From an uncultured Bacteroidales bacterium (GTDB taxonomy: Bacteria; Bacteroidota; Bacteroidia; Bacteroidales; VadinHA17), in the NCBI GenBank assembly GCA_963778605.1, contig CAVZVF010000001.1:857757-921756 (forward strand): a stretch of DNA of 64,000 nt. Direction: 5' to 3'. Shown here one piece after another: positions 38,434-57,500 of this stretch. Numbering within the stretch: the first letter of the stretch is position 1; each line of letters opens with the position of its first letter. The translations under genes and the position numbers were made by a program. Under the pieces are notes generated by a model. The model ran no database searches. It saw nothing but the letters and a program-made list of their open reading frames with translations, and was not told where the DNA came from.

Positions 38434-38658
38434 TTTTAACTTTTATCTTTTTACCTTTGTCTTTTAACTTTTAACTTTGAGTCCACTCCGAAAACTTAAA
38501 AAATTCAAAAATGCCACTAAGACACCAAGACACCAAGGTTCACCAAGGATCATGTCCTCAATAGTTTAATTTTGGTATAACCTGGAGCCTTGGAGCCTTG
38601 GTGGCAAAAAAAATACTTTTAGGAGTGGACTCAACTTTAAACTTTTACTTTTAACTTC
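38434..38658. repeat. Nested imperfect palindrome built from short-period words (MITE-like or structured-RNA candidate)
   Basis: The outer inverted repeat is gagtccactcc (38479-38489) / ggagtggactc (38622-38632). The inner arms are gccac-taagacaccaagacaccaaggttcaccaagg (38513-38547) and cctggagccttggagccttggtggc (38581-38605). T-rich direct words (ttaacttttaacttt) lie on both outer flanks. Confidence 0.6.
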
Positions 38659-49010: not shown

Positions 49011-50222
49011 TTATTCAAACAACTTAAATGCCTCTTTTATTAAGCCTATAGCTTCTCTTAACTGTTTTTCAGTAATTACAAGCGGTGGCGCGAAACGGAT
49101 AATATGATCATGTGTTGGTTTGGCGATAAGTCCCTTATCTTTCATTGCCAGACAGACATCCCAGGCTGTCTTATCTCCTTTTGGCTTTATTACCACTGCG
49201 TTAAGCAGTCCCTTGCCACGTACAAGCTCAATCATATCCGATTTAATATTACTGAATTCTTCGCGGAATATTTTACCCAGGTGTGCAGCATTTTCGGCCA
49301 GTTTCTCGTTTTTAACAACTTCAAGTGCTGCTATTGCTACCCTGGCAGCAAGAGGATTACCTCCGAATGTGGAACCATGTTCTCCGGGTTTGATGGTTAG
49401 CATAATCTCATCGTCGGCCAGTACTGCTGATACAGGCATTACCCCGCCTGAAAGTGCTTTCCCGAGTATCAGAATATCGGGTCTGACTCCCTCGTAATCG
49501 CAGGCGAGCAGTTTTCCTGTCCGGGCAATTCCGGTTTGCACTTCATCAGCTATAAAAAGTACATTCTTTGATTTGCAGAGGTCATAAGTTTTTTTCAGGT
49601 ACCCTTCGTCAGGAACGAAAACTCCTGCCTCTCCCTGGATAGGTTCTAAAATGAAACCTGCAACATCAGGATCCTTCAGAGCATTTTCAAGGGCTGTTAT
49701 GTCATTGTATGGAATAATGACAAATCCCGGGGTGAATGGTCCGTAATCATTTCTTGCATCGGGGTCGGTTGACATTGAAATAATTGAAATGGTGCGTCCA
49801 TGGAAGTTACCCTCACATGCAATTATCTTGGCCTTATCCTGTGGAATACCCTTTTTCTTATATGCCCATTTACGGGTGAGTTTGAGAGCTGTCTCATCAG
49901 CTTCAGCTCCGGAGTTCATTGGAAGGACTTTATCGTATCCGAAATACTTCGTGATGTACTCTTCATATTCACCAAGTGCAGAATTGTAAAATGCCCTTGA
50001 AGTAAGTGTAAGCGTTTTAGCCTGTTCTGTTAAAACTTTCACAATTGCAGGATGGCAATGGCCCTGATTCACAGCTGAATAAGCCGAAAGGAAATCGAAA
50101 TATCTTTTTCCTTCAACATCCCAAACAAAAGGACCTTCACCCCTTTCAAGTACTACCGGCAGTGGATGATAGTTATGTGCTCCATACTTTTCTTCACGAT
50201 TAATAAAATCCCGTGTGTTCAT
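49011..50222 (-). CDS. rocD: Ornithine aminotransferase (class III PLP aminotransferase)
   Basis: 403-aa intact [23 protein letters not shown]...[15 protein letters not shown] and [11 protein letters not shown] are characteristic of ornithine--oxo-acid transaminase. Confidence 0.88.
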
Positions 50223-50318
50223 ATTGTTGATTATTAAGTAGATATAAATGTAAGAATCCAGATCACAATTTTACTAAAGCTTTTTGTTATTTCCAAACAA
50301 TGTATCACCCCGGATACT

Positions 50319-50533
50319 CCGTCTCTTAATCGCTCTGTCTCTTAGTCCCTTCGTCTCTTCGTCCCTTCGTCTCTTCGTCCCTTCGCCTCTTCGTCTCTTA
50401 GTCCCTTCGTCTCTTCGTCTCTTCGTCCCTTCGTCCCTTCGTCTCTTAGTCCCTTCGTTCTCTTCGTCCCTTCGTCTCTTAGTCCCTTCGTCTCTTAGTC
50501 CCTTCGTCCCTTCCTCCCTTCGTCTCTTAGTCT
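50319..50533. repeat. 8-bp-period pyrimidine-rich minisatellite (about 26 units of cgtctctt / cgtccctt / agtccctt)
   Basis: Read directly: cgtctctt agtccctt cgtctctt cgtccctt cgtctctt cgtccctt cgcctctt cgtctctt agtccctt ... The last unit contains the trmD stop codon (rc of 50527-50529). Tracked ORF 50284..50538 is its translation artefact. Confidence 0.9.
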
Positions 50534-51204
50534 TTTAACAAATCCGGTCGCAATCTTAATGTACGCTCCTCCGACTGCAAATGTCTCCATTTGTCAATTT
50601 CGGCGGTGTTTCCTGAAAGTAGGATATCCGGTACCCGCCATCCATTGAATTCGGCAGGCCGTGTATAAACAGGAGGAGCCAAAAGATCATCCTGAAATGA
50701 ATCCGAAAGAGCAGATTGTTCATCGGAAAGTGCTCCCGGTAAAAGCCTTACAATTGCATCAGCTATTGCTGCGGCAGGTAATTCACCTCCCGATAATACA
50801 TAATCACCTATAGAAATCTCCATAGTAACAAGGTGATCGCGGATTCGCTGATCAATTCCTTTATAGTGACCGGCCAGGATAATAATATTGTTTTTCATGG
50901 ATAGACGGTTTGCCATTTTCTGATTGAATTTTTCACCATCTGGAGAGGTGTAGATTATTTCGTCATAATTTCTTTCGCTCTTTAGTTTATTCAGTACCTT
51001 GAAAACAGGCTCTATCATCATTACCATCCCCGCTCCGCCGCCAAATGCATAATCATCGACGCTTTTATATTTATCATTTGTGTAATCATGCAGGTTAACC
51101 ACATTTATTTCAACAAGTCCTTTATCTTTCGCTCTTTTAACTATTGAATAATTGAGCGGACTCTCTATTAGTTCCGGTAAAACGGTGAGTATGTCTATTC
51201 TCAT
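50527..51204 (-). CDS. trmD: tRNA (guanine37-N1)-methyltransferase
   Basis: Tracked ORF 50527..51231, trimmed to the ATG at 51204 ([25 protein letters not shown]...). [18 protein letters not shown] and [15 protein letters not shown] are TrmD hallmarks. Confidence 0.95.
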
Positions 51205-51232
51205 AAGGATTAATTTTTGTAAAAATAACACT

Positions 51233-52659
51233 ATTATCCGATTAATAATTTAGATTCGTAATTGACTTTCATAAGTATTTGATTATCAATGCTATCATAT
51301 TTTTCATTTAAAAACTGACCCCCTGCATATTAAAGGATAATTGTAACCCTGGAGGGATTGATTTACTCTTAAATTTTCTTTTTGTACTCCGCAGCAATTC
51401 ATTTACATCCAGCATTGCTGATTAAATGTATCCGAACCAATGATGCTACAACTGAGAAGGCTTTCTTTGCCTGTGCGATCTTTTGGGTTACAGTCAATAG
51501 CAGTTGGGCTATTAATGTACACCAGACTTGAGTATAAATGGCATTTTCATTTTCTCCATAAAAGTAATGCAACTGGAAGTTCTGCTTCATTTTTTTAAAC
51601 AGTATCTCTATACCCCATCTTTTCTTGTAAAGGAATGCCACATCTTCAGCTTCAATATCAAAGTTATTTGTCAGAAAATCATAATAGCGGTTCTGTTCAT
51701 CTTGATAACTGACCTTTCTTAATTTCATTTTTAGTTTGGTCTTCATATCTTGCTTGCCGTCTTCTTTTCAGGATGATATTCCAGTTCGATAATCTCATCT
51801 CTTAAAACTTTTGCCTGTCCTTTCTTACGATAATGAGCTCGTTTAACCTCTATAACCGTATATACAGCATTCTTTTTCATCCGGGTGACAAAATATACCT
51901 GCTTTTGTGTCCAAAGTGCAAACTGGTGATAATAGTTATAGGCTTTATCAAAGACTATCATGCTGTGCGATATCAGTTCAAGGCTCTTTAAAAACTTCTG
52001 ATCATTGACTTTTGCTGCCGTCATTTTGATAAACCGTCCAACCGATTGAACTGCATCAATAAGCATATGGACCTTCATACCGCCTTTCTTCTTGCCGTCT
52101 ACCTTTGGGATTACGGCCAACTCCCTTTCAATATATCACTGAATAACCGGATAGTTGTTGAATCAATAATAAGTACCTCTTTAAAAGTTAATCCAAATGT
52201 TCGGCTGTCCGACAAAAAACTCTGATAATGTTTTACCAGAGTAAAATACAGATCTTCAAAAACCTTATGACTCCTGTTACGCAAACCGTCACATGCCGTA
52301 CTCTTAGCAGGGGCCTGATCCATCCCAAGATGATTAAGCTTGCCGCCCATTGCCCGCAAACCTTCGCATATCTTCAGTCATCGAATCGCACCGGCTTAAT
52401 ATCCCGAACAGCATCGTAAAAAGGTGTGTCCGCGTTTTGAATGATTTGTAATAATAATCACTCTCATGCTTTCTTAATCAACCCTTTTATATCAACTTTA
52501 TCCACCAAATTCATTATCTGTTTGAAAATCGGCTGTCCGACTAATTTTATTTCTGTAATTTTACCCATGTTGTATTTGTTTTTGCAAAAACCAAATTACA
52601 ACATTGGGGGAAACCTTTGGGGAGTACCCCTCTTTTTATTATTTTAGTCGGACACTAAT
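51233..52659 (-). mobile_element. IS4-family insertion sequence, copy 1 (full-length ~1.43 kb; transposase 52568..51399 broken into at least 4 frames)
   Basis: Manual N-terminus from ATG 52568 gives MGKITEIKLVGQPIFKQIMNLVDKVDIKGLIKKHESDYYYKSFKTRTHLFTMLFGILSRCDSMTE. It then passes through ORFs 52111..52359, 51743..52120 and 51399..51746. DDE-type motifs are IIDSTTI, VFDKAY and YKKRWGIEILFKKMKQ. The right end is fixed by comparison with copy 2 (both end ...ttttagtcggacactaat). The left end is tentative (attatccgattaataa as a degenerate inverted repeat). Confidence 0.7.
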
Positions 52660-57375: not shown

Positions 57376-57468
57376 TTAAAAATAACAAGAAATTGAGAAA
57401 AGCGCAAAAGACAATGGCGTAACGGCGCAATAACGCAATGGTACAATGGTTATTACTTTTTTAATTAT

Positions 57469-57476
57469 TACTTTTG
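57469..57476 (+). promoter_or_regulatory. Candidate Bacteroidota -7 promoter element (TAnnTTTG)
   Basis: tacttttg lies 25 nt upstream of the ATG at 57501. This is a sequence match only. Confidence 0.3.
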
Positions 57477-57500
57477 ACATTTAACTTTTAACTTTTTCAA

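Follow-up and report, generated by a model that had tools for sequence, protein, structure and literature searches.

The oldest example of the short-period arrays is the STRR (short tandemly repeated repetitive) heptamers, reportedly described by Mazel et al. in 1990 from heterocystous cyanobacteria. STRRs comprise few unit families with many intergenic loci each, and they are tandem, strand-asymmetric and transcribed with the neighbouring genes. No function or spreading mechanism is known for STRRs, and none is known to have been accepted for short-period arrays in the 35 years since the STRR description. An orientation rule at gene ends is not known to have been part of that original description. 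The contingency SSRs of Haemophilus, Neisseria and others lie in reading frames or between promoter hexamers, belong to surface and restriction genes and switch their expression.

TAACTGA heptamer direct repeats were found in Beggiatoaceae, cyanobacteria and five Bacteroidetes (MacGregor 2015, PMC4679880). Most of them directly precede start codons, in forward orientation, and they were proposed as sites of a translational regulator. Some Bacteroidetes have long arrays, with short repeat-free junctions in close relatives (PMC4679880). Rehm et al. 2015 (PLoS One, PMC4692102) described the heptamer SSRs GGGAATC and GGGGA(C/T)T in Xanthomonas and Nostoc. Their G-rich strand is the coding strand where they follow a stop by up to 50 bp, and the non-coding strand where they precede an ORF. 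They are dispersed, non-coding, transcribed, depleted between divergent ORFs and found beside ordinary metabolic genes. They vary in close relatives, G4 formation of the class was shown in vitro, and their function was left unresolved there (PMC4692102).

The array described here is an octamer member, in a further lineage, of this published class of dispersed G-rich SSRs (PMC4692102). It shares with the Rehm heptamers the 6–9-nt tandem units, the dispersal across the genome and the concentration in non-coding DNA. Also shared are the strand rule (the octamer array overlaps a stop, and 3' ends follow the rule genome-wide by 25 vs 3), the depletion between divergent ORFs, unrelated housekeeping neighbours, length and sequence variation at the same junction, and inverted pairs. 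Unlike in the heptamers, the octamer unit is of unrelated sequence, and the host is an uncultured Bacteroidales genus with matches in other phyla. The octamer arrays have no four-unit preference and reach 1,152 bp, the array next to trmD lacks a canonical G4 motif, and the rule spans many unit families, some without G runs.

Like the STRRs, the octamer family is one unit family at many intergenic loci, tandem and strand-asymmetric; the STRRs differ as heptamers of other sequence in heterocystous cyanobacteria. Slippage-prone tandem units and a copy number that changes between strains are shared with the contingency SSRs. Unlike those, the array lies after the trmD stop and upstream of a −33-like box, beside housekeeping genes. 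Arrays of 6–9-nt units are abundant in scattered bacterial lineages. The genus studied here is a rich natural dataset, with many unit families within a single genome and dozens of sequenced congeners.

Array and gene junction in the window

The window is the whole stretch of 64,000 nucleotides that was analysed. Its top-scoring tandem repeat (TRF) was the octamer array next to trmD. The features at this junction were:

49011–50222, minus strand: class-III aminotransferase (rocD-like ornithine aminotransferase), 403 aa, downstream gene (Pfam PF00202, E=1.3e-129)
50264–50298, minus strand: promoter-like box for the aminotransferase gene (TTTG and, ~21 nt on, TAAAATTG as part of AAAAAGCTTTAGTAAAATTGTG)
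50284–50538, plus strand: spurious 84-aa frame that stays open because the pyrimidine strand of the array has no stops (ORF list)
50319–50533, minus strand: octamer minisatellite, 26 units, sense reading AAGRGACK (TRF, shuffled-pattern test and unit parsing)
50527–51231, minus strand: trmD, tRNA (guanine-N1)-methyltransferase, 234 aa (Pfam PF01746, E=6.6e-57)

The gene names of the original prediction, made from the letters alone, were borne out: trmD by Pfam, and rocD in that the class-III aminotransferase is consistent with it.

TRF called the array at 50337–50533 with a period of 8, 24.5 copies, 82% matches and a score of 245. Hand-written parsing rules resolved 50319–50533 into CGTCTCTT (10 units), CGTCCCTT (6 units) and AGTCCCTT (5 units), four single-base variant units (AATCGCTC, TGTCTCTT, CGCCTCTT and CCTCCCTT) and a single 9-mer (CGTTCTCTT), which makes 26 units and a partial AGTCT. 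A true indel or a long-read error could account for the 9-mer. The two-unit pattern occurred 20 times in the window, with 0.02 occurrences expected from shuffles. The predicted 8-bp tandem array is thus real, and with a period of 8 and 24.5–26 units it has the head-to-tail 6–9-nt organization of Rehm-type, STRR-like SSR arrays.

The minus (sense) strand of the array was 84.2% purine (A 42%, G 40%, C 12%, T 6%). The top strand of the 215 nt had 40% C, 12% G and 84% pyrimidine, in agreement with the ~85% claimed before. It had also been claimed that AGTCCCTT always follows CGTCTCTT. In the 26-unit parsing, this was true of four cases, and in the fifth the preceding unit was the variant TGTCTCTT. 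This order fits a duplication of 16-bp double units (chance p ~0.01 by simple arithmetic).

The end of trmD reads ...AAA GAC TAA GAGACG, with the TAA at 50527–50529; hence, the last codon and the stop lie in the first array unit, and the array supplies the trmD stop as predicted. On the other side, the array had been thought to fill the whole intergenic space. This was wrong: 96 bp next to the aminotransferase gene (50223–50318) are free of the array and hold the promoter-like box. The box AAAAAGCTTTAGTAAAATTGTG is conserved in congener junctions and overlaps a sigma-70-like match at 50296–50268. Its sequence fits the Bacteroidota −33/−7 consensus. The array ends ~20 bp upstream of the −33-like element, and the box marks the distal limit of free DNA at the junction. 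No intrinsic terminator was found in the trmD–aminotransferase spacer, and an Rfam covariance-model search of 49800–51400 gave no match at E≤1.

Directly upstream of trmD, two ORFs of 115 and 125 aa (51399–52120, minus strand) each match part of a DDE_Tnp_1 transposase. The pair is a split or frameshifted IS copy, perhaps a true pseudogene, perhaps the product of an indel error in the long reads. These split ORFs showed no association with other arrays.

The 84-aa plus-strand frame was rejected as a gene: it had no Pfam match and overlaps trmD. It is open because the 8-bp period cycles through all three frames and the pyrimidine strand is open by composition alone. It is extremely improbable that the array is an assembly artefact or real coding sequence, as the 9-mer unit and the open frame across the array might suggest. 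The array lies inside a 1-Mb contig, and independent assemblies of many metagenomes have arrays of this kind at this junction. The latter rules out the assembly artefact that had been named beforehand as a refutation of the array.

Several structural readings were tested on the array. The sense RNA was unstructured, with a fold of −12 kcal/mol compared with −16.7 kcal/mol for shuffles (z=+1.8). A motif of four G3 tracts joined by loops of ≤12 nt did not occur in the array; it appeared only with a loop of at least 13 nt. ViennaRNA with the G-quadruplex option returned no quadruplex and the same −12 kcal/mol fold. A canonical G-quadruplex was therefore not supported for the array next to trmD; such G-tracts are the mark of the G4 subclass and not of the SSR class as a whole. 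Triplex or H-DNA was rejected as well: the longest pure-purine run was 15 nt, every unit contains a pyrimidine, and the runs are too short for a long uninterrupted mirror repeat. A CsrA/RsmA sponge was rejected because the CsrA family (PF02599) was not found in the 86%-complete genome; GGA was carried by only 12 of the 26 units. A known RNA family was rejected for lack of an Rfam match.

Octamer family and short-period arrays in the home genome

The home genome is a 5.28-Mb Bacteroidales MAG (34 contigs, 39% GC, 86% complete). A genome search had been suggested as a check, and it placed the array as one of 13 loci of its family. The family, [C/A]GTC[C/T]CT[T/C], comprised 19 arrays at these 13 loci on seven contigs. 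A degenerate three-unit pattern had 292 matches, and the reversed-pattern control had 0. Array sizes ranged from 24 bp to 1,152 bp, the largest having 143 units (C12:4660-5811). The many unlinked loci are a property of Rehm-type, STRR-like arrays.

The neighbours at the 13 loci were unrelated: rhodanese, riboflavin synthase, recJ, maf, an FKBP isomerase, an HIT protein, pdxH, an ABC-F ATPase, a fucosidase and others. Consequently, an operon-specific role of the octamer arrays was rejected. No flank was shared among the 13 loci. A mobile element or MITE was rejected, since there were neither conserved flanks nor inverted termini. REP, BIME and MITE elements are palindromes or have terminal inverted repeats at conserved ends; here, there was no common flank, and the sense RNA of the array next to trmD was less structured than shuffles.

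At every octamer locus, one array begins within −36 to +24 bp of a stop codon, with two exceptions at 60 and 130 bp. The purine strand of the stop-adjacent arrays continues the sense strand of the adjoining gene. Four arrays broke this rule, all of them inverted partners of arrays that obey it. Some of the loci lie between convergent genes without a nearby promoter. The array units give the last codons and the stop of three genes, namely the rhodanese gene (C8:23965), the HIT gene (C12:110505) and trmD. Family members of the type (AAGGGACG)n at C8:25010 and C12:4660 have a G3N5 spacing.

The last four to eight codons of the rhodanese gene (L012:3966-4001, home genome) and of TrmD in L171, L151 (G023) and L141 (G070) are array units. 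These C-terminal tails are variable and rich in Asp, Gly, Glu and Lys, and the stop codon is donated by the repeat.

At one locus beside recJ (L016, G000:C12:4660-6423), the 1,152-bp array and an inverted 160-bp array flank a 123-aa gene. This gene belongs to the 23S-rRNA-intervening-sequence/Avd-like four-helix-bundle family (PF05635). The 1,152-bp array generates a spurious ORF of 399 aa. Head-to-head inverted octamer pairs, 3–25 bp apart, were found between co-directional genes at G000:C23:9884-10132, C9:384869-385167 and C12:110385-110544. Here, the transcript runs through a purine array and then a pyrimidine array, and it would form an imperfect hairpin of up to ~100 nt.

The octamer is not the only unit with many copies. 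TRF on the whole genome gave 677 non-redundant tandem repeats, among which periods 7, 8 and 10 were clearly over-represented. There were many unit families with several loci each (CTCCCCG, CTCCGCT, TCTCACC, AACTCTC, GCCCTGA, CTCTAAGTA and others). Larger repeats were also seen. At G000:C9:198279-199667, an 11-mer (72 copies) lies beside a 43-mer (13 copies). Other large arrays are a 32-mer (21.6 copies) at C15:124040-124728 and several 27–29-mer arrays rich in CCCCCC at C16:38600-48500.

The placement of the 66 intergenic short-period arrays was compared with 300 random placements. A gene 3' end was the nearest neighbour within 30 bp in 30 of the 66 arrays, while the null gave 5.5 ± 2.3 with a maximum of 13; the genes were simple longest-ORF calls in an 86%-complete MAG with frame breaks. 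In the sense direction, 25 of these 30 arrays had more G than C and three had more C than G (p=2.7e-5); purine-rich sense strands prevailed by 25 to 2. With the GTCYCT family left out, the ratio was 16 to 2 (p=0.0013). Arrays were depleted in divergent regions (7 observed, 14.4 expected, p=0.025) and enriched in convergent regions (16 observed, 9.7 expected).

Arrays that abut start codons had the opposite polarity, with more C than G in sense in seven of eight. The window itself has two arrays of this start-codon-adjacent, G-poor-in-sense class. They are TTTTAAC heptamer arrays at 38434–38478 (6.4 copies) and 57459–57496 (5.6 copies; TRF), which the earlier reading of the letters placed just upstream of the start codons of mutS2 and a ykgJ-like gene. 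They are the parallel to the TAACTGA arrays. The octamer array is likewise intergenic with a fixed orientation to the neighbouring ORFs; unlike the TAACTGA arrays, it is stop-adjacent.

Of 28 arrays, 25 were oriented in line with the adjacent gene and 14 in line with the local GC skew. Where gene strand and skew were discordant, the array followed the gene by 11:0. An explanation by replication strand was therefore rejected, and the rule is tied to gene expression or gene boundaries. At least 10 unrelated unit families of the home genome obeyed the placement rule. GAGAGTT and TACTTAGAG obeyed it without any G runs, so G4 is not the common factor.

The published heptamer work is extended here in three respects that leave fewer mechanisms to consider. 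The rule depends on composition and not on a specific sequence, it tracks gene direction and not replication, and the arrays can capture the stop codon, even C-terminal codons, of housekeeping genes.

We also checked the homogeneity along the arrays. The gene-proximal third was more homogeneous than the distal third in 10 of 14 arrays and less so in four (p=0.017). This weak polarity would fit array growth at the gene end.

The strand rule raises the question of a functional 3'-end element, which we regard as unlikely. The G- and purine-rich sense tail, produced after ribosome release at the stop codon, would then form R-loops or G4-like structures or resist 3'–5' exonucleases. It would act in RNA polymerase pausing or termination, or would stabilize trmD mRNA, and R-loop-linked instability would make the array expand away from the stop codon. 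With its G-strand in sense, the array begins right at the stop, here and at most other loci, and the rule holds by composition across unit families and follows transcription direction. Moreover, trmD is not followed by an intrinsic terminator, G3N5 spacing occurs at the two loci named above, the heptamer class forms G4 in vitro (PMC4692102), and the slightly greater homogeneity of gene-proximal units points in the same direction. However, neither a canonical G4 nor a ViennaRNA quadruplex was found in the array next to trmD, and many obeying families lack G runs. In addition, the array is missing in many congeners with the same gene pair, and start-codon arrays carry the opposite strand in sense.

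The junction in relatives

Of 24 genomes sampled from the same genus, 16 had the octamer pattern; none of 16 other families of the order had it. A scan of bacteria with one genome per species found it in at least 119 contigs, mostly Bacteroidales MAGs, but also in Phycisphaerae/Planctomycetota, Acidobacteriota, Armatimonadota, Cytophagia, Balneolaceae and others. Foreign arrays at ≤30 bp from a gene end were at the 3' end and purine-rich in sense in 18 of 20 cases in low-GC genomes and in 9 of 10 in high-GC genomes, where ORF calls are unreliable and calls inside an ORF were left uninterpreted. The single trmD locus is ordinary for its home genome; the genome-wide and cross-phylum rule offers a handle on an old question.

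The junction itself was compared in 30 congeners and in 40 metagenomic contigs that had been located by their promoter box. TrmD of the compared junctions was 75–86% identical to that of the window. With the aminotransferase gene and its promoter after trmD, 23 of 49 junctions had an array; with another gene directly after trmD, there was an array in 0 of 17. The commonest was the GAC-purine octamer family with 4 to ~20 units, which enters the trmD reading frame in L171, G023 and G070. Other units of 8–9 bp were ATCATGCA, GGTCRTGCA, CACTTTAGG and CATAACCG. Some congener junctions had inverted arrays that would form long hairpins, and the minimal junctions (20–26 bp) had no array.

Between identical flanks, the junction measured 193 bp in L178 and 98 bp in L187 and L235, with ~12 units inserted internally. 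The arrays of L192 and L190 were about two units apart. On a quick tree of TrmD, the octamer state needed ~5 changes, with at least two of them forced by well-supported branches. The state was clustered on the tree, and 0 of 500 shuffles were as low. The array is thus heritable over short distances and unstable over longer ones. At this junction, arrays were repeatedly gained, lost and swapped.

This bore out the predicted hypervariable, slippage-prone spacer: unit number, unit type and presence vary across congeners and between near-identical populations. The variation of length and sequence at one junction is also a property of Rehm-type, STRR-like arrays. A metagenome scan with a unique 20-mer flank gave no match, and copy-number polymorphism is shown for related populations only. 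As the array is gained, lost, resized and replaced among congeners, it is dispensable for trmD and the aminotransferase gene.

A REP-like palindromic element of the GATTGCTTCG...CGCAATGAC type replaces the array at the trmD junction in L142 (G051) and L155 (G010). In the home genome, the element also comes after an octamer array of three units that lies behind the FKBP gene (G000:C9 near 60040).

The predicted roles of the array at the rocD promoter were weighed as well. A sequence-specific binding array or a non-B DNA switch, in which the copy number tunes the aminotransferase promoter, would agree with the array end ~20 bp upstream of the −33-like element, with the same octamer at many loci in several phyla and with the varying copy number. 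Nevertheless, we consider it very improbable. Members of the family also occur between convergent genes, where no promoter is near, and the promoter is conserved in congeners with a 20-bp junction and presumably works there. A triplex acting on the rocD promoter is a weak proposal, as the purine strand is interrupted every 8 nt, with runs too short for H-DNA, and the 8-bp period is out of helical phase. The dedicated protein- or RNA-binding array of the original prediction is unlikely as a general account, given the same placement of at least 10 unrelated unit families and the searches for CsrA (86%-complete genome) and Rfam families that found neither.

The arrays have practical consequences for Bacteroidales MAGs: they cause spurious ORFs, variable protein tails and assembly breaks. 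They would also suit strain typing as markers.

Tolerance, gene expression and Rho as possible explanations

In our view, the array is probably a slippage-driven, STRR-like minisatellite that fills the one stretch of this junction free of constraint, from the trmD stop to the aminotransferase promoter, and is tolerated there. It would have arisen, and would change its length, by replication slippage or by unequal exchange between units. Expansion would have gone on until constrained by the trmD stop codon at one end and, ~20 bp before the −33 box, by the promoter at the other.

The orientation rule would then be a filter, with arrays persisting where they are harmless. The 3' tail of trmD would be inert, being unstructured, G-rich and C-poor, with a TAA in all three frames. 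Such a tail should not be a Rho-loading site since it is unstructured and G-rich/C-poor. The array may thus be tolerated because its sense RNA is G-rich, unstructured and stop-bearing. The opposite orientation would place 215 nt of C-rich, G-poor and stop-free RNA of the Rho-loading type right behind the stop codon. Beside start codons, the G-poor strand would be the harmless one. Rho avoidance is a putative filter of this kind. The missing spacer terminator, the unstructured sense RNA and the Rho encoded in the genome are consistent with tolerance.

Tolerance accounts neither for the recurrence of one octamer at 13 unrelated loci and in several phyla without a shared flank nor for the strong concentration of arrays at stop codons. 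The recurrence of arrays at the trmD junction in many lineages could instead reflect selection for some property. It is conceivable, if doubtful, that the placement rule reflects an undescribed expression-coupled process. This might be an R-loop-seeded expansion at ribosome release or a compositional 3'-end signal that replaces intrinsic terminators. The 5' end of the G-rich strand at the ORF boundary, the at least 10 unit families, the same octamer rule in Bacteroidales, Acidobacteriota and Planctomycetota, and the precedence of gene direction over replication are the basis of this reading. If it is true, the placement rule is more than the tolerance of junk.

For a tolerated array, the activity is probably passive: it is a spacer and an antisense C-rich track that could load Rho. 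A rut site takes at least 70–80 nt of C-rich, G-poor, unstructured RNA; the antisense RNA has 40% C and 12% G, and Rho is encoded in the home genome. The pyrimidine strand might serve as an antisense insulator, a rut-like Rho-loading track that halts backward transcripts before they reach the upstream gene. These would come from the aminotransferase promoter region or, at other loci, from a convergent neighbour. Besides the composition over 215 nt, convergent pairs agree with this, as their array lies directly at the gene to be protected and is C-rich in the sense direction of the distant gene. At L012, L016 and L020, the inverted pairs of arrays would suit a block in both directions. Yet we regard an insulator as quite unlikely. 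Rho releases transcripts tens of nucleotides downstream of loading, so that an abutting array would terminate them inside the protected gene, and a protective element should sit farther away. Furthermore, arrays of three to five units are too short as a loading track, and the array is dispensable among congeners.

The Rho gene of the home genome (L290, G000:C6:89123-89720) is a 638-aa open frame with a long N-terminal extension, which carries a 36-bp tandem repeat.
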